From assembly GCA_032372955.1 (NCBI GenBank), contig GCA_032372955.1_4725.1: a stretch of DNA of 64,000 nucleotides; one strand, 5' to 3'. Positions 2,025-63,072 of the stretch are shown in pieces. The notes under the pieces were generated by a model. It was not told the origin of the DNA, searched no databases, and saw nothing but the letters and a program-made list of their open reading frames with translations. Within the stretch, counting starts at the first letter, position 1, and the number at the start of each line of letters is the position of its first letter. Origin of the DNA: Escherichia coli (GTDB lineage Bacteria > Pseudomonadota > Gammaproteobacteria > Enterobacterales > Enterobacteriaceae). Position numbers and translations under genes: made by a program.

Positions 2025-2056
2025 CCTTCCTCCAACCCAACAGGGAAGGAGGAAGG
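2025..2056. terminator. conserved Y/R hairpin, copy 1 (inverted orientation, A:A mismatch type)
   Basis: ccttcctccaaccc-aaca-gggaaggaggaagg, followed by tttatg. It lies after gene 725-2014. Confidence 0.7.
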
Positions 2057-2162
2057 TTTATGGCGTTGGTATCCGGTTATCTTTTGACTTCTGAATCAAC
2101 GGTTCAGAAGGTAAATGGCGGACATGATCACCCGCCAAGATTTTCCTACGTAGGAGTTCCAA

Positions 2163-3464
2163 ATGGAAAACGTGTTACAACAACCCATGACATCGTTGTT
2201 TCAAGGGATTGATGATGAACCTGTAGAATCGTTCGGTATCGCTGGCAACGTTCTCGATGCCAGTAATATTGAGAATCAGTTTCACTCAATCGACGAAACA
2301 AACACGGTGATGAAAGAAGGTGAACAACACCTTCAAACATTAAATAAACTCAGGCTGGATATTGTCCCAAACATGGCTGAAGTTGAAGAACGCGATATCA
2401 GCACCATCAAACATATCGCATCGACCGCAGCAGCCGGAATGGGAATGGACCCAAACCACATCATCGAGGGCCTGGAAGAGGAAACTTCCAGCGGGATGAG
2501 CTTGAACATGGAAAGTTTTGACAAGACCGCAAAAGAAGCAACCCGAGCATTATGGCTTTACATGAACGAATTGTACCGCTACGCGATCGATATCTGCAAT
2601 CGTTGTTATCGTCGATTCGTTCGTCAGGTGAAGCCGTTATTAAAGAAAGCGGCTGCGTTGAAAACTATTTCCGAATACGATGTTAATGAAGATAACGCAT
2701 TCTGGGAGAACTTTCCTTACAACTGGCGATATCTTCATCCGAAAGGCGGTGCGGTAAACAGTATTGCTGATCTACGGCAAACCGCAGAAAACATCGTAAT
2801 GAACACAGGAATCCTCGCAGCATGGCATCGTCAACTCGATCCGTTATTAATGCAGCTACTAAAAGCACCGTCAGTGGATAACAAAGAAGGTATCGCTGCA
2901 GAAAACGAAGCCTGTTGGGAGAATATTCTCGAGGTCATCAACGATGCGTTATGCGAGAAGCCGTTAAAGCCTACCGGAACAGACGATATCGTCGTTGACG
3001 TACCTGTTGGTGCTTCCTATCTTAAAGTACACAACATCGAAGACGCAACAGGAACGCAATTCAGCGTTGTGTGGGAAGCCGTATCTTTCCAATCGGCAAA
3101 AGATGGATTCCGTTTCTTACCGTTAAACGATGTTATCGACGGAACCAACGCGATCATCAACGCATTAAGTACGTTATGGTCTACGCTACGACAGTTGGAA
3201 TTTAAACGTTGTCTTGAAGCAAGCCTTGCCGACCAGGACGAATGGATTCAACCTTACGAGCGTTTGCTACAACAGATGGACAACAACGATACCGCATCAT
3301 CCGCTATCGTTCAACGTGTGGGTATCGCGCGTAACGTCGTCGGCTTCCAGGCGGTTGCTTTTGCCCGATTCCTGTTAACTGTCTGCGACGTCATCGACGG
3401 TCTTAACGATTATCTTGACGCGCATCTCGAACTTGAGGAAACCAGCAATGCTGCAGACCTATGA
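2163..3464 (+). CDS. paralog family A protein (function unproven)
   Basis: 433-aa ORF with AGGAG upstream. IKHIASTAAAGMGM and MESFDKTAKEATRALW align with IRQIASTSAANLGM and LEGFKERAAQALYAVW of ORF 725. Confidence 0.55.
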   Translation: MENVLQQPMTSLFQGIDDEPVESFGIAGNVLDASNIENQFHSIDETNTVMKEGEQHLQTLNKLRLDIVPNMAEVEERDISTIKHIASTAAAGMGMDPNHIIEGLEEETSSGMSLNMESFDKTAKEATRALWLYMNELYRYAIDICNRCYRRFVRQVKPLLKKAAALKTISEYDVNEDNAFWENFPYNWRYLHPKGGAVNSIADLRQTAENIVMNTGILAAWHRQLDPLLMQLLKAPSVDNKEGIAAENEACWENILEVINDALCEKPLKPTGTDDIVVDVPVGASYLKVHNIEDATGTQFSVVWEAVSFQSAKDGFRFLPLNDVIDGTNAIINALSTLWSTLRQLEFKRCLEASLADQDEWIQPYERLLQQMDNNDTASSAIVQRVGIARNVVGFQAVAFARFLLTVCDVIDGLNDYLDAHLELEETSNAADL

Positions 3465-4554
3465 TGGACAGATTCAAGCGTTAAGCTTGTTAAAAACATT
3501 ACCTGTGCCAGAGACAGCAACGCAACGACAAATTCACCAGCTTATTTATCAGCAGGCGGGCGGTATGCTGCCGACCAGTTATACCACAGAAAGTGCTGAT
3601 CTCCTCACGATGGAATCGTACAATCAGCTTGCGATGAAAATTATCAAAGCTATCATCGATGCGATCTGGACAACGTTGCGGAACATTACTGCGTTTATCG
3701 CCAGGTTTATCGATCGTAGTCGCGCACTACAGCTCGAACTCAGCAATATCCGTCGTCACTACACAAAAGCCGTTGGTCGTAAACCCATCGCGCAAAGCTT
3801 CGAAGCTTCGACGACGCTGGCCCCACACTTACGGTATGGGAACAGTTTTGGGTTCGATTTCACAACCGGGAATACGCTATACAAACAGAATTTAGCAATC
3901 GCTGAATATCTCTTGTCTTCGTCGTTCCGTGATGATTTCAAGCAGTTCGCTAATACGTTAGATAGAGCGCTCGACATTATCTTAAAACAGACGGATACCG
4001 CATTAATCGATGTGATTAACCGTGATGCGTACACGTTATTGCATAAAGTCTACAGTACGCTGAACGAATCGAGACTTGTCAATGTAACGTTACTGGGCAA
4101 CCGTACGCTACGACTCGATCAGGTTACCGCCTCAGGTTCCGGATCAATTCAACAGTCCCTCGCCATTCAATCTGCACGGTTTGAAGTCCAGGATGTACCG
4201 TCCATTGAACGGGATATGGTGGTTACAACGCCAACATTAGAACAAGTTGGTGTGCTACTCGAGTCTGTAAATACGGGTGTTGATTTGCTGGTTAGTTACC
4301 ATCGTAAAAAGTACGCCAACGAGTTACTCGAAATCGCAGGGAATCTACAAGCAAAACTTAACGACGTTTATCGTCAACAAGGTCAGTTGTCAGTTGCTAC
4401 TGCTTCTGATGATGCTATGGTAGCCCTTTCTCGATACCTTACAGCGTATACCGCGTGGATCAAGGTGCCGCTTGTGGGCTATGCCGAGTTCTTTACGAAT
4501 TCAACAGCGGCTATGCTTGATGTCTCTCGCGAGGCGCTGAAATATTACTTTTAA
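3448..4554 (+). CDS. paralog family A protein (function unproven)
   Basis: I moved the start to ATG 3448 (GAGGAA 7 nt upstream); the track start is 3415. It overlaps the previous gene by 17 nt. It carries TMESYNQLAMKIIKAIIDAIW, matching the family ME[SG][FY]-helix motif. Confidence 0.5.
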   Translation: MLQTYDGQIQALSLLKTLPVPETATQRQIHQLIYQQAGGMLPTSYTTESADLLTMESYNQLAMKIIKAIIDAIWTTLRNITAFIARFIDRSRALQLELSNIRRHYTKAVGRKPIAQSFEASTTLAPHLRYGNSFGFDFTTGNTLYKQNLAIAEYLLSSSFRDDFKQFANTLDRALDIILKQTDTALIDVINRDAYTLLHKVYSTLNESRLVNVTLLGNRTLRLDQVTASGSGSIQQSLAIQSARFEVQDVPSIERDMVVTTPTLEQVGVLLESVNTGVDLLVSYHRKKYANELLEIAGNLQAKLNDVYRQQGQLSVATASDDAMVALSRYLTAYTAWIKVPLVGYAEFFTNSTAAMLDVSREALKYYF

Positions 4555-4569
4555 GAGGAATAACGCTTT

Positions 4570-7500
4570 ATGAAAAAATCGTTAGCTGATCTGATGCGTA
4601 AGTCGCATCTTAACCTGGAAAGCGGCGATACACCTATCGAAGTCAAAGCAACGCTTTCTACCGATAAAGAAGAGCAAGTGATCGCATTACCTACAGCGGC
4701 ACGGCCAGACAGCATCGAAGCGACGATCGAATCAGATACGCTCGAGGAAGGGGCTACCGTTGATGACGCCGTTCGTGTGATTCGTAGCACGGATGAGAAC
4801 GGTGAGGATGTCGTACGTGCTGTTATTGTGACCCGTCCTATTGATGGTAGTTTACGAATTCGTTTCACACCGAGCAGCGGTGGTGTGACCATGGAAGACG
4901 GTAACGATGTTCAACCGTTCGTTCTGATCGCGGTACCGACCGCACCTGGCGAAGAGCCGAAGAACCCATATCCGGCAAACGCGCCAACCGAAACACCGGC
5001 ACCGAAAGTGACCAATGATCCGACCGTTAACGCTGACCGTGACAACCTGAAGAACAAGATTCAGGATGCGGCTAACGCCATCGACCCGACCAACCCAGCA
5101 CAAATCGAACAGGCAGCACAACCTGCGGAAACCACCGAAGGTGTTAAAGGTAACGTCGTCGAACCGGAAAAAGCAGAACCTGTTGCTGAAACAGCGGCTG
5201 CGGCAGCCGAGGTGACGCCAGAAACCAAAACAACGGAAGAACCCATCAAAGTCACCGTGATTAAACGTGTCGTGGAGAAAGTAGAAAAGGTTGAAGATAA
5301 CGTCGCTGACGAACAACCTGTTGTCGACGCTAATGACGGTAATACCGGTGAGCAGAAAGCCGAAGCAGTTGCCCAGGAAACAGAACTGCAAGGCGATGTT
5401 GAGGTCGATAACGCTGACGAAACACCCACCGAGGACAGCACCACCGAACCTGCGTCCGAAGAACCTGCTAACACCGACGCTGACGCTGGTACCACCGACG
5501 ACACAACCACCAAGGGTGATGAAAACACCAAAGGTGACGATGATGAAGACGACGAAAACGAAGAAGATGAAGATCTGAAACAAGAGTCGTTCGAAATTCA
5601 TCAAGAGCTGGAAGCCCGTGGTGTATTAGATGTTCCTGTTGTTGAACAGCGCGCATCGGTTATTCTCGGTGAAGGTGAAACAGATGTAACCGTCATTGAA
5701 ACAGAACAACCGTACATTCCTGGCACCATGGTGGTACGTCGTCTTGATGGGGATAAGAGTGTTATTGTTCGCCGTACTCGTTACGCTGAACGCTTTAACG
5801 CTGATGGTCAGGGTGAAGCGATCGCCATTGTCGACCCTACTCTGCAAGGCGAACTGAAAATGGAATTCCGTCCGGCTGAAGGTCCGATGGAAAGCTTCGA
5901 GATTCGTCCTGAAATCAAAGACGAATACATCATGGAATCGTACAAACAGCTTGATATCGCACTGAATAGCGATCTCAATCTGGAAGACGGGGAAAAGCAA
6001 CCAGGTCGCTTTAAACAGATTCTGAAATCGGTTTACGAAGCGGTCGCGAAGTTCTTAAAAGCCCTCGTGGCACGTTTGAAAAATCTCTTTGGTGTTAATA
6101 AGAAAAAAATCGAAGGGAAGGCCAACAAGCTGACCAAAGAACAACGCACAGCACCGGTGATGAAACTGCTTCCTCCGCCGAGTAATACTTCGGATGAAAA
6201 GAAAGTCAACGTCGAATGGAACAAACTCGATACGCTGCTTGCGAACGACGCTAAATCCGTCGATAAAATCGTAAACGCGGTAAAAGACAGCAAACGTATC
6301 GCTGAAGCATCCCGTAAGTTCTTCGACCAGCTGAAGGATCTTAAAGAAGGCGAAAGTCCAAACGCTGATACGGACATGCTGACAGCAACAACAATGTCTG
6401 GCGTGGCCGCGTTCGGACATAGCGCCGACGCCGCTTTAGACGGTATTCGTAAGTTCCGTGACGAACTTAGCGCCATGAAACAGCAGGATGATGCTGTACC
6501 GTCTAACGTTAGCGTTGATATGCTGATCGATGCGTCAACGAAACTGTTTAACGAAGACCTTCTGAAAGCAGCTACACAACTTCAGGAGACAGCTGAACGG
6601 CTAATCCGTGACCTCGATAAGAGCGGTAGCGATTATGATGTTGGCTACATCGTTAAACGCACGCGCACACTGATGAACTTTGCGACAACAGCATGCACCG
6701 TCTACGGATTCGCTGCGAAAGAACTCGGCGATGTTACCGTTCGTATACTCACCGCTGTTGCAGCGGCTGATAACGGCGATCTCAAACAGGAAGAGTACCA
6801 GGATGTTGCTGGTGAAAACGATCCGGTTGTAACCGTCGAGACATTGGAAGGCGATGCTGGTACTCGTGTTGTTGCTGAGGCGGAAATCGTTGACGATCCT
6901 GCGGTGGTGGAATTCGTTGAGCGTGCTGAAGAAGCGCAGCGAAATCTGGCTATCGGTCGCCATGCGGTGAGCGCGGTGGAAGGTATTCTGGTAGCGGCAC
7001 GCGAGATCGGTCCTGATAACTTCCAGGGTAACGTCGAAGCTACCGAAATTGCGATGGAAGGATTCATGGATACCGTTAAGAGTGCGGTCAACCGTATCGG
7101 TAACTGGATTGAAACCAACCACCGTTACTATACCGCCGCTACGGCTCCATGGGATAAGCTGTTCGCCGAAACGCAGCAAGCGCTGGCCAAAGCGCGTCGC
7201 GGTAACCCAGCAGCGGAACGGATTATTCTGAAACGTTTCATCCGTCATCTTACCATCGGTGGTGAACCTGTTACCGATGTGAAGAAGCTCATCGCTGCGT
7301 TGGGTGAAATCAAAATGCTTGGTAACATGACGCGTGAATTAATCGTTGCTATCGATCGTGAACTCAGCGAAGTGCGGAAGAGCAACCAGTCCGAAACATC
7401 CGCTGGATCGGTTGTTGGTCTGAAGCGTATTCCTATTCAGAAATGGGATAAGCTTATGGTCGCTACCGTACAGCCGTGGAAAGACAGCGATCGTAAAGGC

Positions 7501-7956
7501 GTTGGGTCTAAAGCGTATCTTGGTGAAACGCACATCGTGAAGGTGAGCGCGACCTATGCGACAACGCGTAACAACCCGAACGAGGAAGCAGCGAAACTGA
7601 TGCAGTGGATCTACACCGGTATCAATCGCCAGTTTACGGTTTCTGACGACCTCACCAGTGAGGAATTACCGGTAGCCACTATCAGTGAACTGGAGGCAGT
7701 GCTGCGTGCGGCTCGTGAAGCGCATGAAGCTTGGCTTATTGCTGACAACGCCATGCAGACCCTGCGTTCAATCGATAAATTCCTGGATAGCGAACTCAAC
7801 GTTGAGAACGATGTTAATAATGTCGTTAACTACGGTATTGTTCTCGGCCTGGAAGATTGGTTGTTCCATCCGGCATTGACGTTATGGCAACAGTTCAATA
7901 AACCGATGCAAGCGGTGCTTTTCCTTATCAAAGCCCATTGCGGTGCCTACAAGTAA
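4570..7956 (+). CDS. large (1128 aa) family A-related protein with an acidic, P/T/E-rich low-complexity segment
   Basis: AGAGGA RBS. The N-terminus has VIRSTDENGED, as in ORF 725. It contains MESFEI, IMESYKQL and AMEGFMDTVKSAVNRIGNW motifs. There is a low-complexity region at roughly nt 4927-5590, including DDDEDDENEEDED. Confidence 0.6.
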   Translation: MKKSLADLMRKSHLNLESGDTPIEVKATLSTDKEEQVIALPTAARPDSIEATIESDTLEEGATVDDAVRVIRSTDENGEDVVRAVIVTRPIDGSLRIRFTPSSGGVTMEDGNDVQPFVLIAVPTAPGEEPKNPYPANAPTETPAPKVTNDPTVNADRDNLKNKIQDAANAIDPTNPAQIEQAAQPAETTEGVKGNVVEPEKAEPVAETAAAAAEVTPETKTTEEPIKVTVIKRVVEKVEKVEDNVADEQPVVDANDGNTGEQKAEAVAQETELQGDVEVDNADETPTEDSTTEPASEEPANTDADAGTTDDTTTKGDENTKGDDDEDDENEEDEDLKQESFEIHQELEARGVLDVPVVEQRASVILGEGETDVTVIETEQPYIPGTMVVRRLDGDKSVIVRRTRYAERFNADGQGEAIAIVDPTLQGELKMEFRPAEGPMESFEIRPEIKDEYIMESYKQLDIALNSDLNLEDGEKQPGRFKQILKSVYEAVAKFLKALVARLKNLFGVNKKKIEGKANKLTKEQRTAPVMKLLPPPSNTSDEKKVNVEWNKLDTLLANDAKSVDKIVNAVKDSKRIAEASRKFFDQLKDLKEGESPNADTDMLTATTMSGVAAFGHSADAALDGIRKFRDELSAMKQQDDAVPSNVSVDMLIDASTKLFNEDLLKAATQLQETAERLIRDLDKSGSDYDVGYIVKRTRTLMNFATTACTVYGFAAKELGDVTVRILTAVAAADNGDLKQEEYQDVAGENDPVVTVETLEGDAGTRVVAEAEIVDDPAVVEFVERAEEAQRNLAIGRHAVSAVEGILVAAREIGPDNFQGNVEATEIAMEGFMDTVKSAVNRIGNWIETNHRYYTAATAPWDKLFAETQQALAKARRGNPAAERIILKRFIRHLTIGGEPVTDVKKLIAALGEIKMLGNMTRELIVAIDRELSEVRKSNQSETSAGSVVGLKRIPIQKWDKLMVATVQPWKDSDRKGVGSKAYLGETHIVKVSATYATTRNNPNEEAAKLMQWIYTGINRQFTVSDDLTSEELPVATISELEAVLRAAREAHEAWLIADNAMQTLRSIDKFLDSELNVENDVNNVVNYGIVLGLEDWLFHPALTLWQQFNKPMQAVLFLIKAHCGAYK

Positions 7957-7971
7957 TCCGTGCACATAAAC

Positions 7972-7998
7972 AGCCCGCCCTTCGGGGTGGGCTTTATG
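7972..7998 (+). terminator. rho-independent-type hairpin (UUCG loop) followed by TTATGCTGTC
   Basis: agcccgccc-ttcg-gggtgggct, then ttatgctgtc. It lies 16 nt after the stop of gene 4570-7956. Confidence 0.7.
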
Positions 7999-8044
7999 CT
8001 GTCGACCATCATGTGATATCTTATCTTTCAAACAGGAATCTGCG

Positions 8045-8428
8045 ATGACACGTGAAGCAAAATTTCTTTCACTCGCACTTAACGGTGCGCAGCAACAGAC
8101 ATGCTTGGTAGCGGCGTGCCCGCGACATTCAGTACCCGGTATGTATATTTGCCGTATTAACCCACATACCGCACACGAAACCGTCGTGCAGATTCCTGTT
8201 GCGGCACTACCGGAAGGTACCATCAAACCAATCATCCAAGGATTGCCGTTAGAAGCGCTATACGCTGTTTTAAACAACGAAATAGAAACATTAATGGAAA
8301 CGTCCAATGAAACAGATAAAACGCGTCTAGGGCTTGTTAGAGAGCTTCTACATAGCAGTCTGATTCATTATACCGGATATCGACAACAAGGAGGTGAGGA
8401 AATTAGCGAGGACGACACCGATGCCTAA
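8045..8428 (+). CDS. hypothetical protein
   Basis: 127-aa ORF with AGGAA 6 nt upstream. It is the first gene of a five-gene translationally coupled block. Confidence 0.55.
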   Translation: MTREAKFLSLALNGAQQQTCLVAACPRHSVPGMYICRINPHTAHETVVQIPVAALPEGTIKPIIQGLPLEALYAVLNNEIETLMETSNETDKTRLGLVRELLHSSLIHYTGYRQQGGEEISEDDTDA

Positions 8429-9986
8429 ACTTGATCGAAAAATCAATGACGTATACGCGACGGTAACACGTCCGGTTGCAATCGCGGTGTTACGGCAGAT
8501 CAGCGAGCTTTGCGGATGGGATTATAATCGGGAGAACATTCTTTTTCGAGGGGAAGCGCTTCACGCTAAAATGAGCGCTGCGAACGAGCAACCGCCGCAA
8601 GTTGTTGATCAGGATGTAAAAGGGCCTGCTGACGGGTTTATCCAAATTGAGCTTAATATTGTCCCTGAAGAACAGGCGTCTATGTACGATACCGTTTACA
8701 AACGAAACAGTCTTCCCGTATTCGAAGACCGTAACCTTGGCGTATCGTTAGTACCTGTTTACAGTACAATGGTTGCGACCATGCAGATCACCAAACGGTT
8801 CGAGGATCAGGTCACCGCCGAACGTTGGTGGTACGACATGAAACGTTTGCTGACAAGCCAGCACGTCGCTGCCTTTCTTAGCGCTGAATACAGCTATGCG
8901 ATCCCAACACAGTTTCTCATGCTGTTAAAAGTTATCCACACACACCGAGAAGCAATAGCGGGTTACGGGGATAAGTTCAGCGAATACCTTAGAGACGGGT
9001 TCGACAACCGTGCAACCACCATGACGACAGTTGCCGGTGACGGTAAGAGCGTTAAATTGGTTATCAGGGAAATGCAAGAAGAGATCTCTGGCCAATTTGA
9101 TTTCACCGACGCACCAAAACCCGAGAAGAATGAGAACAGTTCTTCGTACAACGCAACCTTCTCTTACCGTTACACGTACGACACACCAACACACATCGTA
9201 GCACGGTATCCTGTTCAAGTACACCAACAGATACTCCCCGAAGAGTACCTTTACAAACCGAGCCTCTCGGTGCGTGATAAATCCCGTGCGCGTCGTGGTG
9301 GTATGGTGGTGCAGTATCAGGACATTCTTCGTGATTCGTTCTTGCCGGAGCAGGGTGCGTCGATTCAAGCGTATCGGTATCCTGATCTGGATGAATGGCT
9401 ACCGCCATCGAGCGTGGAAACCGAGCTTCCATCATGTACGCTTTTCACCGCACTGCTTGCTATCGATCCCGAACAACCTAACCTGTTGGTGACGTTGGAC
9501 TCGTTAGCCGAAGAAGGTGAATTCCATCCCGATCTTGTTCGGTGGTTCCGCGAGTACCCGGAATGGTCAAAATGCCATTACCAATCTCCTTTTTTCCTTG
9601 AGGTTTGGAAGGGTAAATACCGCTACGCAAGAGACGCGTGGACATTAACCGACGTTGGCGATCTTGAAGCGAAAGATCCGTTAGACTTACGGAGTGATTA
9701 CCACGTTCGTCTGGCGATACTGTTAGATTTAAGTCAGTTACAGGTTGAAACACTTGAAGCGTTGTGTTGTTATCCCAATCTGGTGGATGAACTGTTTGCG
9801 GTATTAGGTTTAGATAAAAAGTACTGGCCTAAGAAGAACAGTCGGGGATGCTATACGCTAATCGGGCTTATCGAAGCCATCAAACGTATCCCAACAACCG
9901 CTTCGTGGTTCAAACATCGTAGTTTATTCGTGCCGAGAATTCTTGTCGGTACCATCGTAGGAGTGAAACGCTATGGCGCTCGCTAA
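8421..9986 (+). CDS. hypothetical protein (likely structural; coupled block)
   Basis: I chose ATG 8421 as the start; it overlaps the upstream stop by 8 nt. The track start is 8394. Long ORF with no recognisable catalytic motifs. Confidence 0.6.
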   Translation: MPKLDRKINDVYATVTRPVAIAVLRQISELCGWDYNRENILFRGEALHAKMSAANEQPPQVVDQDVKGPADGFIQIELNIVPEEQASMYDTVYKRNSLPVFEDRNLGVSLVPVYSTMVATMQITKRFEDQVTAERWWYDMKRLLTSQHVAAFLSAEYSYAIPTQFLMLLKVIHTHREAIAGYGDKFSEYLRDGFDNRATTMTTVAGDGKSVKLVIREMQEEISGQFDFTDAPKPEKNENSSSYNATFSYRYTYDTPTHIVARYPVQVHQQILPEEYLYKPSLSVRDKSRARRGGMVVQYQDILRDSFLPEQGASIQAYRYPDLDEWLPPSSVETELPSCTLFTALLAIDPEQPNLLVTLDSLAEEGEFHPDLVRWFREYPEWSKCHYQSPFFLEVWKGKYRYARDAWTLTDVGDLEAKDPLDLRSDYHVRLAILLDLSQLQVETLEALCCYPNLVDELFAVLGLDKKYWPKKNSRGCYTLIGLIEAIKRIPTTASWFKHRSLFVPRILVGTIVGVKRYGAR

Positions 9987-55588: not shown

Positions 55589-56401
55589 ATGAAAAAGCCC
55601 ATGAAGAAGCTAGGCCATGCACGCAAGCATCGCTATTCCGATCTGGAGAAAATGTTTTTAACGCAGCAGCCGTTTCTCCAGACTTATTTTAACGGGATGG
55701 CGAAGAAGTTAGCCGATGAGTACCAGGAGCGTGGTACGCCAGCACGAATTACAATCACCGTAATTCCAACGTTCGCTGAAAAGATCTATAACGTCATGAC
55801 GGAGATTATTCCCGAAGACGCAAAATCCCAGGATGAAGTTCTGCGATTAACACGCTACATCCGTTTTAAAGAACATCTGGACGCACAAGCCACCATCATT
55901 CTGGAAAACGAAAAACCTGAACCCGACGTTGAGCTTATTGCTTCTCTCCTCCCTGACCGTTTATTACACGATTTTGTTACCGTGAAACGTATCGACGAAC
56001 AAGGAAAAGAGGTTGAGGTTCAGCTACGCCAAGAAACCGTGGTTGCGTTGGATTGGATTGAAGACCGTTGTAAAGCGCTGAGCAAGCTTCTGGATGATGA
56101 AGGGACGAATGCTCGTGTCGCTATCGATTTCGGTTATGAACCGGATGATGCAGTAACCATGATGCGCGTGCTGTACGATCCTAAGGTTAATGACCACGCG
56201 ATCATCGTTAAACGCGAAGGCGTTAAAGGCGAAGTTAGCCTGGTTAAAGACCTGGGTCCTATTCACACGGTAGGTTTAACCGAAGACCAAACGCCGTTCG
56301 AAAAGCTTTCGGTGTATGAGCAATCGGAAGTTGAACGCTTCCTGGAAGGTGTTGTTGCGAAAACCTTCCCATGGTCAGTAGAGGCTGTTGTAACATCATG
56401 A
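55589..56401 (+). CDS. hypothetical protein (270 aa) downstream of the SbcC-like gene; no nuclease motifs seen
   Basis: AAGGA 9 nt upstream of ATG 55589. I saw no metallophosphoesterase (DxH/GDxxDR/GNHD) motifs. Confidence 0.55.
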   Translation: MKKPMKKLGHARKHRYSDLEKMFLTQQPFLQTYFNGMAKKLADEYQERGTPARITITVIPTFAEKIYNVMTEIIPEDAKSQDEVLRLTRYIRFKEHLDAQATIILENEKPEPDVELIASLLPDRLLHDFVTVKRIDEQGKEVEVQLRQETVVALDWIEDRCKALSKLLDDEGTNARVAIDFGYEPDDAVTMMRVLYDPKVNDHAIIVKREGVKGEVSLVKDLGPIHTVGLTEDQTPFEKLSVYEQSEVERFLEGVVAKTFPWSVEAVVTS

Positions 56402-57012
56402 TCCCACCAGAATACGCTTACGATATTCTGGCAATCGACCCTGGCACCGATACACTCGGTGCGTCGTTACTACGTTTGGACGTGCGTGTCGAAGATATTG
56501 AACTGCTGTATGCGGGGACATGGCACGCCTCACGTCGATACGATCCCGATGGCGATATTGCGCTTGGATACGGTAATCGTGCCGCGCGTATCCAAGAACA
56601 CCGTCGTTCGCTGACAACGTTATTGCAAGAGTACCAGCCGCAAGCGGTTGCTTGTGAGACACCGTTCATCGGTCGTTTCAAGCAAAGCGGTATGGCGCTC
56701 AGCGAGCTGTTTTCAGCGATTCAGACAACGGTTATCGACTTTGATCCTACGGTATCTTTCTTAGGGGTTGATAACCGAAGCGCAAAACGCGCTGTTGGGA
56801 TTATGACGTCCCGTGTTGGTAAGGACGATGTTCGCCAGAAAGTGCTGAACCTCATGAACATCACACCCAGAAACGGTGTCGTGTTAGCGAATCTTGATGA
56901 GCATGCGATAGACAGCATCGCCGTGGGTTATTTCGCAGCTGAACTCCTGTTCGAAGAATGGCGTATTCTTGATGACCATCGAAACGGGAAGGTCGGTACA
57001 AAACGCCGTTAG
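56398..57012 (+). CDS. RuvC-like Holliday junction resolvase
   Basis: ATGA overlap with the upstream gene. ILAIDPGTDTLG (first catalytic D), ACETPFIG (E) and DEHAIDSIAVG (terminal acidic pair) match the RuvC-fold motif order. Confidence 0.7.
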   Translation: MIPPEYAYDILAIDPGTDTLGASLLRLDVRVEDIELLYAGTWHASRRYDPDGDIALGYGNRAARIQEHRRSLTTLLQEYQPQAVACETPFIGRFKQSGMALSELFSAIQTTVIDFDPTVSFLGVDNRSAKRAVGIMTSRVGKDDVRQKVLNLMNITPRNGVVLANLDEHAIDSIAVGYFAAELLFEEWRILDDHRNGKVGTKRR

Positions 57013-57044
57013 CAACTCGTACAAAACCCAAGAAGGAAAACGTT

Positions 57045-58226
57045 ATGAATACGGTTGAATGGGGCCTAGTTGATTATTGTCCTCAAGTCCCGGTTATCTG
57101 TGGTGCAGAGAAATACAGCGAAGATCGTTTTATCGTACCGTTGGTCAGTACGACGACAAAACGTCCGGTTAGTGAAGGTGCAATAACCGGTCTGTTGGCG
57201 CATCTTAACGACGGTAAGGTGCCCGTCATTAGCAGTAAAATCGAAGCGGTGCTTGATGGCGCTGAAGTGCTCTTCCCGATTCGTGACGTGAACGATATCG
57301 TCGGTCGCGTTTTAACAGGATGGTTGGAAGACGACGGTGTGGTAAAAGCCTTGATTCATATTGACCGCGATACTCCTAATGCGGAACGTGTGAAACAGGC
57401 ATTGAATTCGGATGCTACGCGTTTGCAGATCACCGTCATGGACGTTGGTGCTGAAAACAAGTATTTAGTTGAATACTTCGTTCCCATGGTGTCCATCGAA
57501 CCTTTTGACCGCATTGTTGAGCAACCTGAACCTACCGCAGATAAAATAGTGACGCCAGCGGTAATGCGAAGTATCACTGCAGACAACTCGGTATTGAACA
57601 ATGAATCTATCATCCTACGTGGTATTGTTCCTACCGGATACAACGGTGAAGCATTATTAGTCAGAATTCCGGAACTTAATAACCGTCGTGTGTTTATCGG
57701 ATGTGTTGGGTATGAAGTTCTGTACTTCGACGCCGAAGGTCGTGCTGTGATTGCGACAAAATCAAAGTTATTTAACCAGCATAAAGCGCAAGCGTCCGCA
57801 ACCCAACCGTACCGGCTGGTGTATTCCGAAGATAAAGTAACGATCTGGTTCGTGAATGGAAACGATACCCTTAATAGTGCTTTTCCAGAGAAAACATTCA
57901 AACCAGTGACATTAATAGAAATGTTCGGTGGTGAGGCATACGTAGCTAATTGTGTTAATGGTCAGTTCCGTCTACCCTCCTGTTGTGAATTCAAGACGGA
58001 TGACACCATTACCGTAAACAATGTGCGTGTAAGTCTAATAAGAATCGACGCTAGTTCCGGTTTTGCGGTGTTTGAACCCCACGGCATGATTCTCGAAAAT
58101 CTTAAAGAGGCTTGTAAGGTCTCAGAACCATTCGGTGATGAACGCAGCCTTATCATCGTTAAACGTACCGATGTTGATCGGGTGGAGATTACAGTATCGC
58201 AGCCGATGTCGGCGAAAACGAAGTAG
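57045..58226 (+). CDS. hypothetical protein (393 aa)
   Basis: GAAGGAAA RBS. No assignable motif. Confidence 0.6.
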   Translation: MNTVEWGLVDYCPQVPVICGAEKYSEDRFIVPLVSTTTKRPVSEGAITGLLAHLNDGKVPVISSKIEAVLDGAEVLFPIRDVNDIVGRVLTGWLEDDGVVKALIHIDRDTPNAERVKQALNSDATRLQITVMDVGAENKYLVEYFVPMVSIEPFDRIVEQPEPTADKIVTPAVMRSITADNSVLNNESIILRGIVPTGYNGEALLVRIPELNNRRVFIGCVGYEVLYFDAEGRAVIATKSKLFNQHKAQASATQPYRLVYSEDKVTIWFVNGNDTLNSAFPEKTFKPVTLIEMFGGEAYVANCVNGQFRLPSCCEFKTDDTITVNNVRVSLIRIDASSGFAVFEPHGMILENLKEACKVSEPFGDERSLIIVKRTDVDRVEITVSQPMSAKTK

Positions 58227-58242
58227 TTAATTGGAGCGGGGA

Positions 58243-58872
58243 ATGTCTCGTAATAAATATATCGTTATTGAAGGCCTGGATTATTCAGGAAAGAGTTCGG
58301 TTATCTCGTCTTTACACAGTCGTTTAAACAACGTCTGTGTCGTACGTGAGCCGGGTGGTACGCTCTACGGAGAAGCCATTCGTAAACTTATCCTGGAAGA
58401 TCAGACGCCAACGAACAGATTCGATCCAGAAACTGAACTATTGGCGATGATGTCGCAACGCAATCATCTCTTCAACAAGGTGATTCATCCAGCCCTTAAC
58501 GAAGGGAAGACTGTGCTTAGCGATCGTTCGATTGCTTCGACGTATGTTTATCAGGTTAATGACGCTAACGTTAAGTTGTTTGATGCGTTGTTGCCGAACT
58601 TACCGTCTATTATCATGCCGTCTTACTACGTTTATCTGGATATTGACTATCCTACGTATTTAAGACGGTTCCGTGTTCGCCACGCTAAACATCAGATGTT
58701 TGATAACATCGATGAAGCGACATTCAATAAACGACGTTATCGTTACATGGATTTTATGGACTATCTCGGCGATGCGAAAACGTTGTGTATAGATACCAGT
58801 AACACACATTCTCCTGTTGATGTCGCTAATCGTGTTTACGACAATCTGTTGAATGCAGGGTTTGTTGAATAA
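58243..58872 (+). CDS. tmk: thymidylate (dTMP) kinase
   Basis: YIVIEGLDYSGKSS is the P-loop of Tmk (IxxEGxDGxGKST), and VREPGGT is the Tmk REPGGT motif. The DRS/Y segment is present (LSDRSIASTYVYQ). I set the start at ATG 58243; the track start is TTG 58231. Confidence 0.85.
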   Translation: MSRNKYIVIEGLDYSGKSSVISSLHSRLNNVCVVREPGGTLYGEAIRKLILEDQTPTNRFDPETELLAMMSQRNHLFNKVIHPALNEGKTVLSDRSIASTYVYQVNDANVKLFDALLPNLPSIIMPSYYVYLDIDYPTYLRRFRVRHAKHQMFDNIDEATFNKRRYRYMDFMDYLGDAKTLCIDTSNTHSPVDVANRVYDNLLNAGFVE

Positions 58873-58889
58873 CGTTTAACGGCATATTT

Positions 58890-58921
58890 CATCCTCCCTT
58901 CCCTTACGGGTTGGGAGGATG
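58890..58921. terminator. conserved Y/R hairpin, copy 10 (between convergent genes)
   Basis: catcctcccttccc-ttac-gggttgggaggatg, then gtttttatgcgc. Confidence 0.7.
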
Positions 58922-58925
58922 GTTT

Positions 58926-59234
58926 TTATGCGCTTTCTACTTCAACGATAAAACGACGGATTTCACCATCAGAGGCTTTCAATGTTTGCGTGTAGGTGAA
59001 TTTTGCGATCCCTGACGGCAGCAATACATGATCGGTATTTTCTGTATCGTGTTGGAAATCTTTATTGGAATCAAGATCGATACTGTTTAAGGCCTTCCGT
59101 ATACGTGGCATCAGTGGATAAAAATCACCGAGATCGCGTAACCCTGGAATGGGTTCTAATACGATTTTGGTTTCAGTGCCAACACCATTCATGACAGGCG
59201 TTGTTGAAGTAAATTCAACGTTCAAATTGCTCAT
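58926..59234 (-). CDS. hypothetical protein
   Basis: The ORF is open to 59339. I prefer ATG 59234 (AAAGG ~10 nt upstream, MSNLNVEF...). The start is uncertain. Confidence 0.45.
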   Translation of the reverse strand: MSNLNVEFTSTTPVMNGVGTETKIVLEPIPGLRDLGDFYPLMPRIRKALNSIDLDSNKDFQHDTENTDHVLLPSGIAKFTYTQTLKASDGEIRRFIVEVESA

Positions 59235-59344
59235 GTTTATAACCTTTTGTTTAACAGACGATGAATAATCATGCATAGGTGTTGGCCCTCGTGAAGACGG
59301 GGGCCTCGACGATTTCTCGTCATACACTAATGCACACATTGTTT

Positions 59345-59467
59345 TCAGCGTAATACATTATGCGTATTACGCCTTTCTTCAGCCATGATAGCAACAGCGT
59401 GTTTAACAGAGAATGCGCAGATACCCGCCAGCAATGCTCTCTCCATTAGAATGAGTAACATGTTCAT
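59345..59467 (-). CDS. candidate small hydrophobic peptide (38-40 aa), not in the ORF track
   Basis: AAAGGAGGGAG lies immediately upstream of ATGAACATG. The product is MNMLLILMERALLAGICAFSVKHAVAIMAEERRNTHNVLR, with a hydrophobic N-terminal half. Its 3' end contains the hairpin at 59348-59372. Confidence 0.3.
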   Translation of the reverse strand: MNMLLILMERALLAGICAFSVKHAVAIMAEERRNTHNVLR

Positions 59468-59540
59468 CTCCCTCCTTTGTGTTATATTCACACCATTTTC
59501 CTATTTTGTTAATTCTTATTCCTGATATTTAACAGCATAA

Positions 59541-59564
59541 AAGCCTGCCCCGAAGGACAGGCTT
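59541..59564 (-). terminator. rho-independent-type hairpin (UUCG loop on the minus strand) followed by TTATGCTGT
   Basis: The minus strand reads aagcctgtcc-ttcg-gggcaggctt, then ttatgctgtt. It lies 5 nt after the stop of gene 59570-60391. Confidence 0.65.
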
Positions 59565-59569
59565 GATGA

Positions 59570-60391
59570 TTAGTAACGACGTAAGCTATCTACGGTGTTG
59601 CCATAACAGTCAGTAATGTACACACTTTCATTGGGATAGATGAAAATGAAACACGTGGTGTGCGTTGTTGTCGATGTATAATCGTCTACAACGGTTGGTT
59701 CGGTATAGCGTAGAACACCAATCGCTTGACTTAAACGGTAATTGTTTTCATCGTTCATCATAGCGTAATGTTCATCGCATCCATCAGATTTAACGACGAG
59801 GTTGTGATGTACCGCCCGAACCCCAGTAGGCTCTTGTTCTTTTAATGGGCCATCCAATTCGATATCATAACCACCATCGGTGGTGGGTGTTGCCGTAGCA
59901 AGAACCGATCCGTATTTCTTTACCAGGGGCGATAAGCTGGTATTGATCTTCGTATTTGGATCGATGTCATCAAAAAGTAACTGATACGTTAACTTAGCGA
60001 ATTCGGGATGAATATCTTTACCCAGCTGGTTGTTCAGGGCGGCAAGGTATTGTTCAAACGTGTTCTCTGGATTAAACACGCAAACGTCATTAAAATCAAC
60101 CAAAACGTTTGATAAAATTTCTGCGTTTTCGCGCACAACGATAGTCGTGAGACTGATTTCCCGTTTTCTTGCGTCCCGAACGAAGTGTCTAACAGCATCA
60201 CCGAATAACTCTGCCCACGTGATACCGTTGATACAGTCATCGGACGTCAGTGTTCTCACGGCTTTATTTTTAGCGTATTCGATAGCTTCTTTGAATACGG
60301 TACTGTTTCGATTACCTAGAACTGGATCGGTCAGGTACATTGGTTGGCTATTGCCGTTAGTAAACAACTTACAAACAAATACTTTTTCCAT
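59570..60391 (-). CDS. hypothetical protein
   Basis: ATG 60391 lies 6 nt after AGGAA; the track start is TTG 60409. It is followed on the minus strand by the terminator at 59541-59564. Confidence 0.6.
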   Translation of the reverse strand: MEKVFVCKLFTNGNSQPMYLTDPVLGNRNSTVFKEAIEYAKNKAVRTLTSDDCINGITWAELFGDAVRHFVRDARKREISLTTIVVRENAEILSNVLVDFNDVCVFNPENTFEQYLAALNNQLGKDIHPEFAKLTYQLLFDDIDPNTKINTSLSPLVKKYGSVLATATPTTDGGYDIELDGPLKEQEPTGVRAVHHNLVVKSDGCDEHYAMMNDENNYRLSQAIGVLRYTEPTVVDDYTSTTTHTTCFIFIYPNESVYITDCYGNTVDSLRRY

Positions 60392-60492
60392 GATAGGTTC
60401 CTGTTTCAAAGATGATGATTCCGAAGATGATTGGTTTAGGCTAAAAGCCTATAAAATTAGTTGCGGATGCCGTATTTATCTTAATCCAACAT

Positions 60493-60517
60493 TTTTCACG
60501 GCTATATTACTTAAGTG
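60493..60517 (+). promoter_or_regulatory. conserved 25-nt promoter-like motif, copy D
   Basis: TTTCACGGCTATATTACTTAAGTGA, located 24 nt upstream of ORF 60542. Confidence 0.55.
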
Positions 60518-60541
60518 AAGTAAGCCAGCGAGATTTCAATC

Positions 60542-61198
60542 ATGGATAAGACTTTCAGTCTCACCGATGTGGAACAACAATGGTTTCCTATCGAAGTGAT
60601 TGAAAGATACTTTCGCTTGGCTAGGAAACTCGACATACCGCAACAGCTACACCGTTTGAGTGCTCGTGGATGGGTAATGCTGAAAGCCTTACGTGTAGGC
60701 GCAAAACGTTTTTACGCTTTCCTGCACGAGAAACTTAACTGCACATGTAAAACCGAATACCGCCATCCACGATGGTTTAAATCAATTTCATCTCAAAAAT
60801 CGAAGGAGTCTATCATGACCAATAAAGATCAGAAAATGAACAACCAGCCGTTTGAACCATCTGAAACGACTGTTGACCAAGAATCCATTAAGCAATCAAC
60901 TTCCAAACAAGAGGAAACCACCATGAACGTACGTTATGATAACCTTGACCGCGATACCTTAGCCCGCTTGGCTGAATCCGAAATTCATCGGAATGAAGCA
61001 GAGGCTGAATACATGCGTCGTATGGCGCTTGATCAAAAGCCTGACCGTAAATGGCAGTATCGTGCTGGGGTTGCGTTAACGGCGACGAGCGCAGCAGCAA
61101 TGGGCGCTATCGCTCTCTTCTACCTGAAACATACGGGTCTGTTTGACGGTTTGTTAGGGGGAAGCAAACCTGATACAAATGAAGAAGCTGCAAGCTAA
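60542..61198 (+). CDS. hypothetical protein with a C-terminal transmembrane segment
   Basis: The ORF starts 25 nt after the promoter-like motif at 60493-60517 and has a weak RBS. An internal ATG at 60815 has a strong AAGGAG 6 nt upstream and may be the real start. The C-terminus reads AGVALTATSAAAMGAIALFYL. Confidence 0.5.
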   Translation: MDKTFSLTDVEQQWFPIEVIERYFRLARKLDIPQQLHRLSARGWVMLKALRVGAKRFYAFLHEKLNCTCKTEYRHPRWFKSISSQKSKESIMTNKDQKMNNQPFEPSETTVDQESIKQSTSKQEETTMNVRYDNLDRDTLARLAESEIHRNEAEAEYMRRMALDQKPDRKWQYRAGVALTATSAAAMGAIALFYLKHTGLFDGLLGGSKPDTNEEAAS

Positions 61199-61299
61199 TT
61201 GATCCAAGGTCCTCTGATATCAGAGGACCTTGCTTTATATCGTTTTTTCTTTTGTTGTTTTTAACCGATCTTCAAGATGCGTATGTAGGGGAGATGACA

Positions 61300-61827
61300 A
61301 TGCAATACACGTTAATGATTTCTGTTTTGGCTATACTTAGTATCGTTGTTGTTTATGGCGCTTTTGCGCTTCTGAATAGCATGCAGACAACCCTACGGGT
61401 TACCCAATTACATTCTGATGGAGCGAGTACTATGACAACACCACTCATCGATTTGCATGAGCATATTTCCCGTAAACCTGCTGAACGTTTCGTATCACGC
61501 CCTGATCCAATCAGTGACGAGGATAAAGGCTATATCACCGCAACGGTTCAACGTACCGTAGAACGTATGTTACGCCCAGTGGAACAACGTGCTGAGTGGT
61601 CAAACGACTTAGACATTGCAACACTGATGCCTGCTTGGTTGTCTGTATTAACACAACAGGTTACTGCGTCTCTTGAACAGGGTAATCTTCTTCCTAGCCG
61701 ATTTACTATTCGTTGGGAAAGAGACGATGATAAAATTGTTCTCTACGCGGATGCGGATGTAGAGAACATCGGTAAAGTACAGTTGCCCATTAATAAGGTA
61801 AAACCGCTTGCCGACTATTGGGTATAA
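61300..61827 (+). CDS. hypothetical protein with an N-terminal transmembrane helix
   Basis: ATG 61300 lies 6 nt after GGGGAG. The N-terminus reads MQYTLMISVLAILSIVVVYGAFALL. Confidence 0.55.
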   Translation: MQYTLMISVLAILSIVVVYGAFALLNSMQTTLRVTQLHSDGASTMTTPLIDLHEHISRKPAERFVSRPDPISDEDKGYITATVQRTVERMLRPVEQRAEWSNDLDIATLMPAWLSVLTQQVTASLEQGNLLPSRFTIRWERDDDKIVLYADADVENIGKVQLPINKVKPLADYWV

Positions 61828-61838
61828 GTGAGGTCGTT

Positions 61839-62252
61839 ATGGATACTTACTATTGGTATATTGGTATCGGTACGATAATTTTTGTTGCTGCAGCTTTTGT
61901 CGCTGGCTTTTATCTCGGTCGTGGGTCACGAGAGTTCATCGTTATTGATACAAGCGATAACGGAACGGCAACGGGTATCTCTGAGTGTTTGATTGAATCA
62001 TTACGTCAGCTACATCGTCGTGGTCGTGGGGTTCCAATGAACCCCGGTAAAATTCAGCGTAAGTTTAATGAACTGTACGGTGCTTGGTTACGGTTACCTG
62101 AAGACGCGCATCTCGACCTGCGGATCGAACAGTCTAACAAAAATTACTATTTCCATTTTCTCAATCATTACACCCATAACACGATAACAACGATTGTCCT
62201 TCCCATCGGCTGGATTACCGAGGGGATTGACGATGTGCATATTAAAACATAA
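61839..62252 (+). CDS. hypothetical protein with an N-terminal transmembrane helix
   Basis: ATG 61839 lies 5 nt after GAGG. The N-terminus reads MDTYYWYIGIGTIIFVAAAFVAGFYLG. Confidence 0.55.
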   Translation: MDTYYWYIGIGTIIFVAAAFVAGFYLGRGSREFIVIDTSDNGTATGISECLIESLRQLHRRGRGVPMNPGKIQRKFNELYGAWLRLPEDAHLDLRIEQSNKNYYFHFLNHYTHNTITTIVLPIGWITEGIDDVHIKT

Positions 62253-62266
62253 GAAGGATCCTTTCG

Positions 62267-62968
62267 ATGAACCCGTTAAAACGCGCAGTGAGTATTATTC
62301 TTAATTTTATCCCAAACTACCAACGTACCGAAAGATACCGTCATTGGTATAATTTCGTTTACCAGCCGGTGGTAGAAGGACATATTGCTAATCTCGAGAA
62401 AGTGGGAGGCGATAAGAAATACTTGACGGTTACGATTCCGGATATTATCCGCAAGATATACGAAGACCAGGAAGAATTTCCTAACGTCGCTGATATTCTG
62501 TTGTTTATACAAGCGTATCGCTTTCGTCTTACACCACCGAAATCTGTAGTACGTCCGTGGTTTGGAACAAAAACAGATGGTGTGGAACAAGCGATGAAAC
62601 AACGTTTTAACGACCAGTTCGCTCGTCATACTCCTCGCGCGTTACGGGTGATGATGGAAATCCTCAATCGTCCTGATATATGCGTCATTCCGATGATCAT
62701 TGAATCGGAACTGTTTTATTTGTTCGATAAACGATTCGAAGTTACCATCATTGAATACGGTGATGGCCTTTTGGTATTCAGTTACGTTGATTGCGATGGC
62801 GTTGGTGATGTTCGTTACGTTGTTCTGGACGTAGAAGACCGCTCGTCAACGATGACGGCAGCGCAGTTACGTCGATTCGTTGCTTACCTCGAATGGCGCG
62901 ACGAGGATGACGAAGTTCGCCGTAAGAACCATGTTCGCCAGAAGTACGCGAGATTATCTGCATCTTAA
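62267..62968 (+). CDS. hypothetical protein
   Basis: 233 aa with AAGGA RBS. It is followed by the terminator at 62976-63026. Confidence 0.6.
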   Translation: MNPLKRAVSIILNFIPNYQRTERYRHWYNFVYQPVVEGHIANLEKVGGDKKYLTVTIPDIIRKIYEDQEEFPNVADILLFIQAYRFRLTPPKSVVRPWFGTKTDGVEQAMKQRFNDQFARHTPRALRVMMEILNRPDICVIPMIIESELFYLFDKRFEVTIIEYGDGLLVFSYVDCDGVGDVRYVVLDVEDRSSTMTAAQLRRFVAYLEWRDEDDEVRRKNHVRQKYARLSAS

Positions 62969-62975
62969 ACCGACG

Positions 62976-63026
62976 GTCACGGCTCTCCTTCATTGGAGAG
63001 CCTGTGACTATCGTTTTTTTTTTTTT
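62976..63026 (+). terminator. rho-independent terminator with a T13 run
   Basis: gtcacggctctcc-ttcatt-ggagagcc(t)gtgac, then tatcg and T13 (63014-63026). Confidence 0.8.
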
Positions 63027-63040
63027 GCTTGACGGCATAA

Positions 63041-63072
63041 CCCTCCTCCAACCCAACAGGGAAGGAGGAGGG
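63041..63072. terminator. conserved Y/R hairpin, copy 11 (inverted orientation, A:A type)
   Basis: ccctcctccaaccc-aaca-gggaaggaggaggg. TTATGCCGTC is on the minus flank (63031-63040) and AATATG on the plus flank. Confidence 0.7.

Follow-up and report, generated by a model that had tools for sequence, protein, structure and literature searches.

Hairpins at transcription-unit ends of a Goslar-like jumbo phage resemble the terminators of phiKZ

The stretch of DNA analysed here, referred to as the window, comprises 64,000 nucleotides (nt) of contig GCA_032372955.1_4725.1, filed under Escherichia coli, and carries 11 copies of a stable hairpin that lies just past stop codons. As judged by alignment, the window is a relative of the E. 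coli jumbo phage Goslar (Chimalliviridae): an 8-kb sample is 97.9% identical to Escherichia phage vB_EcoM_Goslar, and the whole window aligns with Goslar 63064..1 and on across the end junction of that record at 95.7% identity. Goslar is a 237-kb nucleus-forming phage whose annotation includes split RNA polymerase beta subunits, a nuclear shell protein and the tubulin PhuZ. The window runs as the reverse complement of the Goslar record, with most of its genes on the + strand, and the gene map used here to define junctions was made by projecting the 247 Goslar coding sequences, with reading frames checked, onto it. The ends of the Goslar record overlap by about 50 base pairs (bp; window 63014-63065, Goslar 1-52 and 237253-237304), the genome being circularly permuted, so that the hairpin at 63041 sits on an arbitrary record junction and a covariance model of the family matches part of it twice in the record.

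A preliminary description of the window had listed the 11 hairpins, and all of them are present, position for position. The typical Goslar-type stem is 14-15 bp long, has a stability of about -25 kcal/mol and is interrupted three pairs below the apical loop by a tandem U:U internal loop. Core copies of this form, scored in covariance-model bits, occur on both strands. That at 2025..2056 (51.1 bits) is on the − strand, with U:U on − and A:A on +, and occupies a co-directional junction 10 nt past the stop of a gp056-like gene, with the tetranucleotide TATG at 2059-2062 on its + side. On the + strand, the copy at 13266..13297 (55.9 bits) lies at a co-directional junction 4 nt past a gp048-like stop and is followed by CTTATGCTGT; it is identical in Goslar, and the ATG of its flanking TATG is the annotated start of a 62-aa gp047-like open reading frame (ORF). 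The copy at 14949..14980 (56.2 bits) separates a gp044-like gene (+) from a convergent gene for a DnaB-like helicase (−), with TATG on the − side only and a T10 run 13 nt downstream on the + side. Convergent junctions also hold the copies at 35310..35341 (+, 52.9 bits; gp031-like on + and gp030-like on −), whose Goslar counterpart is annotated as a putative terminator at 27746-27777, at 58890..58921 (+, 48.8 bits; thymidylate-kinase-like gp008 on + and gp007-like on −), which is identical in Goslar, and at 63041..63072 (−, with U:U on −, 52.9 bits; gp001-like on + and gp187-like on −); all three have TATG on both sides. The copy at 47277..47308 (+, 51.1 bits) begins 16 nt past a gp022-like structural gene and is followed by TTTATGTTTG and then by an 837-nt stretch without an annotated gene.

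The remaining copies depart from this form to differing degrees. A variant at 19749..19778 (+, 41 bits), 100 nt past the major capsid gene and followed by TTTCTATGCCGT, has two G:U pairs that complete its pairing as + strand RNA (-26.5 kcal/mol, against -17.4 for the other strand); the claim that it is fully paired thus holds for that strand and not for the other. Another, at 26206..26240 (+, 32.6 bits), has a 15-bp stem and a 5-nt loop, keeps the T:T mismatch and lies between a gp037-like gene (+) and a convergent portal-like gp036 gene (−), with TATG on both sides. At 45452..45483 (+), between an endolysin-like gp024 gene (+) and a convergent gp023-like gene (−), the hairpin CCCCTCCTCACCC-AATAAC-GGATGAGGAGGGG is a loose relative (19.3 bits, E 0.06) with a 6-nt loop, one mismatch and no adjacent TATG, which the Goslar record marks as a putative terminator. 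The hairpin at 51853..51888 (+), CCTTCCTTCCCCGGCC-TTTAC-GGCTAGGGAAGGAGG, represents a second subfamily and has an internal irregularity (C:A/G:U); it lies between a gp014-like gene (+) and a convergent baseplate gp013-like gene (−), with TATG on the − side. The covariance model gives it no match in the window at E up to 1 and scores its Goslar ortholog, again marked as a putative terminator, at 17 bits; the subfamily has Goslar paralogs at 11186, 84366 and 200229.

The family is not a chance cluster, the outcome that the preliminary description had named as fatal to it. The 13-mer CCTCCTCCTTCCC, the left arm of the hairpin, occurs 11 times with at most two mismatches against 0.61 expected, and none of 100 shuffles reached 11. 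A covariance model built on 17 distinct variants recovers nine window copies at 32.6-56.2 bits (E about 1e-5 to 1e-11) and, in a scan of the window, no copy beyond those already noted. Run on the Goslar genome, this model finds 17 copies, of which 11 lie in the 27% of that genome to which the window corresponds. In a systematic hairpin scan the 11 copies are the most stable local hairpins of the window, at -21 to -29 kcal/mol, and the scan also returned a few unrelated intergenic hairpins (7972, 38892, 49991, 59284, 59541, 61205 and 62981). The description of a nearly uniform family applies to the nine copies that the model recovers, with 45452 and 51853 being only loose relatives, and its 4-5 nt loops are found in ten copies (TTAC, TGTT, GTAA, TCATC and TTTAC), 45452 having 6 nt. 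In all 11 the 5′ arm is rich in pyrimidines and the 3′ arm in purines; in the common variant the arms are pure except for the mismatched bases, and other variants carry one A or G. The Goslar GenBank record, which was annotated with ARNold (PMC6563267), already labels three of the 11 as 'putative transcriptional terminator'. With those annotations, and with elements of this kind known in related phages, the novelty implied earlier does not stand, although our literature search found no paper describing this hairpin family as such.

Position and structure both mark the hairpins as features of transcription-unit ends. In the window they start 4-100 nt past a stop codon and occupy four co-directional junctions and all seven convergent ones; the seven copies said to lie between convergent genes thus account for every such junction, and the assignment of the family to transcription-unit boundaries is borne out. 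No divergent junction in the window has a strong hairpin. Across Goslar, 16 convergent junctions have a gap, and 15 of these carry a pyrimidine-first hairpin of -21 to -28 kcal/mol, nine of the hairpins being from the core family. Among the distinct variants, compensatory double changes affect 6 of 14 stem pairs (23 cells) and no basal pair is broken; none of 500 shuffles reaches the observed covariation score, and slid-register controls give 0-2 such cells. Each of the basal arm variants, CCCTCCTCC, CCCTCTCCC, CCTTCCTCC and CATCCTCCC, is compensated. Of the hairpins at co-directional junctions, 24 fold more stably as sense-strand RNA and 7 as the opposite strand (p = 0.003), a bias that is absent from hairpins inside genes (7 versus 10). 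A G:U pair forms in RNA only and on a single strand, which favours an RNA element read with transcription over a DNA site.

A second feature, unremarked in the preliminary description, lies in the flanks. On sides at which transcription arrives, the sequence (T)TATG starts 1-6 nt, usually 1-3 nt, past the stem. In the window, TATG is present within 6 nt on 15 of 18 sides facing incoming transcription. In Goslar it occurs no more than 12 nt downstream on 43 of 72 incoming-facing hairpin sides and on 5 of 40 others (Fisher p = 1e-6), against a background of 2.5% genome-wide and 4.6% in intergenic DNA. By junction type, the Goslar counts are 23 of 34 at convergent sides, 20 of 38 on co-directional downstream sides and 5 of 38 on co-directional upstream sides; as there is nothing downstream to express at a convergent side, these counts assign TATG to the terminating element and not to a promoter of the next gene. 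Aligned on TATG across Goslar, the flanks give a consensus that continues C-Y-G-T and is then T-rich. The same flank accompanies stems outside the family. The + strand hairpin AGCCCGCCC-TTCG-GGGTGGGCT at 7972..7993 (Goslar putative terminator 55080-55101) is followed by TTATGCTGT, and the tail is shared by the unrelated stem at 59541..59564, which follows a − strand gene, is more stable as − RNA (-17.0 versus -11.6 kcal/mol), has the − strand flank TTATGCTGTT and corresponds to Goslar putative terminator 3508-3527. That 7972 lies outside the family and has the same 3′ flank shows that the flank is independent of stem sequence. It had also been suggested that the arms resemble Shine-Dalgarno and anti-Shine-Dalgarno sequences; ORFs that begin at the flanking ATG run to a median of 17 codons (background 18), and only 3 of 43 of these ATGs are annotated as start codons, so we reject a ribosome-binding reading of GGAGG...ATG.

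These are not canonical intrinsic terminators of the host type, as the preliminary description had already held, because they lack an adjacent U-run: a scan that required five or more T within 8 nt after a hairpin flags none of the 11, and terminator-like counts in the window are close to those of shuffles in the same scan. The T10-11 runs reported near some copies exist (14993-15002, 26256-26265, 63015-63025 and 63013-63021, all at convergent junctions), but they lie 13-16 nt past the stem, too distant for classic terminator tails; they might serve as a backup U-run for one direction or for the other phage polymerase. Sigma-70-like promoter sites are also depleted, at 11-20 per 20-kb block of the window against 27-29 expected from shuffled sequence, as would fit a genome left untranscribed by the host RNA polymerase. 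Both this depletion and the missing T-run flags are expected of a phage transcribed by its own polymerases.

A close precedent exists in phiKZ, for which ONT-cappable-seq mapped 133 termination sites, 61 intrinsic terminators were found to share 5'-BCCYCCCCHWWDGGGRRGGBYTTATKYYGT-3', and six bidirectional terminators were placed between convergent genes (Putzeys et al. 2024, PMC10914365). The Goslar consensus TATG-C-Y-G-T equals the YTTATKYYGT of this motif. We read the CATAA-stem-TTATG architecture directly in phiKZ and RSL2 DNA, for instance as cataaG-CCCTCCC-gcaat-GGGAGGG-CattatG at the convergent phiKZ junction near 34917; the motif also marks convergent gene ends at 25214 and 43768. According to the report on 201phi2-1 (PMC11512511), 132 termination sites were mapped in that phage, 15 of them bidirectional; its motif A (n = 59) strongly resembles that of phiKZ, some terminators have a longer hairpin owing to a second motif, B, a terminator trap confirmed the activity of several terminators, and the authors propose that the long stems interact with antitermination. 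The earlier suggestion that a phage RNA polymerase reads the hairpins fits this literature, the same architecture being present at the 61 mapped phiKZ terminators.

We therefore consider it likely that the hairpins are factor-independent terminators read by the multisubunit RNA polymerases of Goslar-like phages, and that they represent the Goslar-lineage version of the phiKZ-like motif. This reading draws on direct observation of where the hairpins lie, how they are built and covary, which RNA strand is the more stable, the rule for their flanks and their agreement with the phiKZ motif. As a mechanism, the nascent RNA would fold into a C/U-rich 5′ arm and a G/A-rich 3′ arm, with 9 + 3 bp around a 2x2 U:U loop (about -25 kcal/mol); UUAUG(C)(Y)GU directly after the hairpin would take the place of a long U-run, and the phage polymerase would stop at the combination of hairpin and UUAUG-type tail. 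At convergent junctions termination would work both ways, because the element is nearly palindromic and has TATG on both sides.

Several points weigh against this reading. RNA 3′ ends at these sites, in Goslar or in the window phage, are predicted from sequence. The stems are twice the length of those in phiKZ, their conserved mismatch would be superfluous in a plain terminator, and a canonical adjacent U-run follows none of the 11 copies. The copy at 45452 has TATG on neither side, and those at 14949 and 51853 lack it on one incoming-facing side. The same data, moreover, fit an RNA 3′-end stabiliser or processing site, and sequence alone cannot separate these.

A more elaborate version of the terminator reading, which we offer tentatively and think rather unlikely to hold in full, is a two-part signal in which the polymerase core reads both DNA sequence and RNA structure, with TTATG as a pause, the U:U loop as an added feature and the terminators as cassette junctions. 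The late promoters of phiKZ require TATG as their core (Yakunina et al. 2015, PMC4666361), and this core is bound by the beta-like subunit gp123, as seen in a structure of the non-virion RNA polymerase (nvRNAP) with a promoter (PMC12809450). TTATG on the non-template strand would be bound by the nvRNAP beta-lobe pocket used for the promoter core; the resulting sequence-specific pause would substitute for the U-run and let the hairpin release the transcript, and re-initiation at the same TATG might occur at co-directional junctions. That the same pocket reads TATG during elongation is speculation. The string TATG does not occur in the texts of the phiKZ and 201phi2-1 transcriptome papers (PMC10914365, PMC11512511), and the two-part idea is not stated in them.

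The internal loop of the stem raises questions of its own. We compared 70 distinct copies, taken from Goslar and the window and from two IMG/VR and several metagenome contigs, about ten genomes that are 82-98% identical to Goslar. TT:TT (AA:AA on the other strand) is kept in 66 of the 70. The eight mismatch copies reported for the window resolve into six with T:T on + (13266, 14949, 26206, 35310, 47277 and 58890) and two with A:A (2025 and 63041). The CCC/GGG flanking the mismatch is invariant in the 17 aligned variants, although the search for copies itself required CCC/GGG, and loop positions 2-4 are hypervariable, often between orthologs (TTAC, TGTT, TGAT, TGAC, TCAC and TGCT). The mismatch lowers stability by about 4.8 kcal/mol in RNA and 4.9 in DNA, with U:U better than A:A by only 1 kcal/mol as RNA; that slight advantage may explain why 13 of the 15 tight Goslar copies have U:U in the majority-strand sense. 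Stability can thus bias orientation and leaves the existence of the mismatch unaccounted for, so we rejected it as the reason. Perfect pairing is within reach and is fixed only in the after-capsid copy at 19749, which looks, from its sequence, like a hybrid of the two orientations. On this pattern the mismatch appears to be under purifying selection. The U:U loop might be a Goslar-lineage feature that tunes read-through, or one that keeps the RNA hairpin while disfavouring DNA cruciforms.

Such constraint is also what would be expected if a protein read the invariant UUCCC-loop-GGGUU, making the hairpin a binding or processing site at which termination is secondary or absent. The reader could be an RNA-binding factor for export or stability, a nuclease of the RNase III/E type, or a factor acting in termination or antitermination. 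The central TT, CCC, GGG and TT are invariant in 66 of the 70 copies, with loop positions 2-4 and six basal pairs varying, which exceeds the need of a generic hairpin. Together with its CAUAA/UUAUG flanks the stem can reach about 20 bp and -36 kcal/mol, which approaches the length of RNase III substrates, and its internal loop occupies the place expected of antideterminants. We know of no protein that binds the Goslar-type hairpin. The antitermination proposed for the long 201phi2-1 stems (PMC11512511) would suit such a site. However, the unrelated hairpins at 7972 and 59541 have the same TTATG flank at equivalent junctions, so the specific centre is not required for boundary function, and enhanced crosslinking and immunoprecipitation (eCLIP) of ChmC in PhiPA3, with binding enriched near start codons, gave no motif and hence none relevant to the hairpins (PMC11077065). 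We judge a binding or processing site to be improbable as the primary role.

Less probable still, in our estimate, is that TATG is a phiKZ-type late promoter starting at G, with the hairpin as an upstream or insulator element. The identity of TATG with the gp123-bound promoter core (PMC4666361, PMC12809450) favours this idea, as does its position between the stem and the next gene on more than half (20 of 38) of the co-directional downstream sides. But TATG is as frequent at convergent sides (23 of 34), where it faces the 3′ end of the gene on the other strand, and it is rare on co-directional upstream sides (5 of 38), so we reject a downstream-gene promoter as the main role. At divergent junctions a crude test counts 27 TATG against 26.5 expected from composition, and the hairpins are absent from divergent junctions of the window. 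A dual role, terminating and restarting transcription, might nevertheless apply at co-directional sites. DNA hairpin promoters of the N4 type were also considered and set aside, the after-stop position and RNA-strand bias arguing for an RNA 3′ element.

Within the terminator reading, the near-identity of the copies most likely reflects shared constraints together with exchange between copies, by flips and replacements. Seven of the 11 copies are identical in the window and Goslar at 4.3% overall divergence. The centre of the copy at 2025 is flipped relative to Goslar 61009-61040 (AACCC-AACA-GGGAA against TTCCC-TTAC-GGGTT), and this copy is the exact reverse complement of the window copy at 47277. 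At 35310 three loop bases differ, TGTT in the window and TTAC in Goslar, and at 45452 several stem and loop positions and the near-downstream flank differ. At the ortholog of Goslar 93445, two relatives have the other arm variant, four coordinated changes away. Two relatives differ from Goslar in the gap that separates the gp076 and gp075 orthologs: they carry an additional gene of about 480 nt and, after it, a core copy (3452-3953 of IMGVR_UViG_3300045988_173921 and 3828-4436 of IMGVR_UViG_3300011560_000001), whereas the Goslar gap (86622-86798) holds another, degenerate hairpin of pyrimidine/purine type; downstream, TTCTATGCTGT and a motif resembling a promoter are common to Goslar and both relatives. 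This comparison suggests that gene cassettes are gained or lost at terminators, and conserved terminators may serve as recombination junctions for cassette exchange between phages.

The exact family has no match in 185,579 bacterial and archaeal species genomes, and in IMG/VR the pattern matches only Goslar-like contigs, three of them, so a host-derived or widely mobile repeat was discarded as a candidate; a shorter pattern also matched unrelated metagenome contigs once each, which we take as chance or convergent. The preliminary description had proposed spread by duplication and suggested that flanks be compared for insertion footprints. The flip at 2025, the arm swap and the gain or replacement lend spread partial support, but no target-site duplications and no terminal repeats beyond the stem were seen, the flanks being unrelated apart from TTATG. 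From the flips, arm swap and replacement, and from the confined distribution, it follows that copies homogenise, flip and are replaced within the phage lineage, and we find no sign of an autonomous mobile element in the bacterial and archaeal genomes, IMG/VR or the flanks compared. A selfish or neutral palindrome of the REP or MITE type (repetitive extragenic palindrome; miniature inverted-repeat transposable element), piling up in the few non-coding gaps without a dedicated function, would account for the copy number, the concentration in the window and the flipped, swapped and replaced copies, but we give it the least credence of all, given the phage-confined distribution, the clean flanks, copies strictly after stop codons and never at divergent junctions, compensatory changes, RNA-strand bias and a TATG that tracks incoming transcription.

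Several other features of the window were recorded. A motif of about 30 nt, (a)atccaacatTTTTCACGGCTATATTACyTAaGTGA, occurs 35-90 nt upstream of gene clusters, at window positions 47978-48012 and 60481-60515 on the + strand and in Goslar near 2567, 113797, 142800, 160791, 166069, 172978, 201944 and 226695 on the − strand; one copy lies upstream of the nuclear-shell gene. Matches to TATATTAC in Goslar are all on the majority coding strand, and 8 of 10 have the extended motif. By analogy with the AT-rich, same-strand early promoters of phiKZ, it looks like an early (virion RNA polymerase) promoter of Goslar-like phages. Within the 837-nt gene gap, the stretch 47309-48097 (about 790 nt) extends from the terminator copy at 47277 to the early-promoter-like motif at 48000; it has no annotated gene and no ORF longer than 39 aa, includes a G/C-rich segment (...CCTCGGCCCCTTCGGGGGACGGGGGAGGAGCG...) near 47420-47450 and could encode a non-coding RNA. 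Rfam 15 gave no match at gathering score across the whole window, and no known RNA family or tRNA was found in it. A 766-codon open frame on the − strand (17424-19724) runs antisense over the whole major capsid gene (+ 17427-19649); as the + frame is the real capsid gene according to the Goslar annotation, the antisense frame is presumably an artefact of composition.

The junctions occupied by the hairpins are themselves conserved. We sampled SPN3US, Huxley, PCH45 and RSL2 around the capsid gene, with about 42-50 kb per genome including phiKZ, whose sampled stretch excludes the after-capsid position. Gene order around the capsid gene is conserved in the four phages, and each has a strong hairpin at the helicase, after-capsid and portal junctions, so the window copies occupy positions that in relatives are held by a terminator of either type. 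Canonical U-runs follow the positional-ortholog hairpins in SPN3US, Huxley and PCH45, and RSL2 has a 16-bp pyrimidine/purine stem followed by TTTATGCTGT. SPN3US and Huxley have TTCG-loop stems and then T-runs, with TATG on 0 of 84 and 0 of 56 hairpin sides, and PCH45 is mixed in style. Chimalliviruses thus seem, from these sequences, to split between a hairpin with TTATG (phiKZ, RSL2 and Goslar) and a TTCG-loop hairpin with a T-run (SPN3US and Huxley).

These findings do not overturn current understanding, but they are useful in several ways. First, they provide a usable map of transcription-unit ends for Goslar, the E. coli model of nucleus-forming jumbo phages, together with a simple search rule: a pyrimidine-first hairpin followed by TTATGCYGT. 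Second, they extend a phiKZ-type terminator signature across the distant chimalliviruses phiKZ, RSL2 and Goslar, and the U-run hairpins of SPN3US- and Huxley-like phages hint that termination by their polymerases differs. Third, the TTATG tail holds the promoter tetranucleotide bound by the phiKZ polymerase core, which suggests a testable mechanism of termination. Finally, the strictly conserved U:U loop and the copies that flip or are replaced set small, concrete puzzles for work on terminator design and on the evolution of phage genomes.

Among known systems, the REP elements and bacterial interspersed mosaic elements (BIMEs) of enterobacteria are likewise numerous near-identical imperfect palindromes in the intergenic gaps at gene 3′ ends, in both orientations and homogenising; the Goslar-type family is confined to phages, its copies are single and not clustered, its 3′ flank is directional, and we know of no REP-associated transposase for it. 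The phiKZ late promoter core 5'-TATG-3' is the tetranucleotide found 1-6 nt past Goslar-type stems, where it tracks incoming transcription and not the downstream gene. Rho-independent terminators share a GC-rich hairpin past the stop codon, one hairpin serving both strands at convergent junctions, but the Goslar-type element has the sequence-specific tail TTATGCYGT in place of an adjacent U-run, and its presumed reader, judging from chimallivirus biology, is a phage RNA polymerase in the phage nucleus and not that of the host. The 201phi2-1 motifs A and A+B, compared here by their published description, offer a conserved motif related to that of phiKZ and a subset of extended hairpins; there the extension comes from the added motif B and not from an internal loop, and several terminators are trap-validated, whereas the Goslar-type ones are putative.

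Closest is the phiKZ motif itself. Both belong to Chimalliviridae with their own multisubunit RNA polymerases, and both combine a pyrimidine 5′ arm, a purine 3′ arm and a 4-5 nt loop with TTATG-Y-Y-G-T right after the stem, in intergenic DNA just past stop codons, and form a CATAA-stem-TTATG palindrome between convergent genes, whose bidirectional use has been shown in phiKZ. They differ in that the phiKZ stem is about 7-8 bp and uninterrupted, although this is not a stated requirement of the published consensus, whereas the Goslar-type stem is 14-15 bp with a 2x2 internal loop and an invariant tandem U:U (A:A); copies within a genome are far more alike in the Goslar type, which is known from sequence, and the 3′ ends of the phiKZ terminators have been mapped. 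The Goslar-type element is accordingly a lineage-specific form of a known class of jumbo-phage terminator and not a new kind, and what it adds to that class is a 14-15 bp stem with a conserved U:U loop, hypervariable apical loops, and flips and replacements between close relatives.

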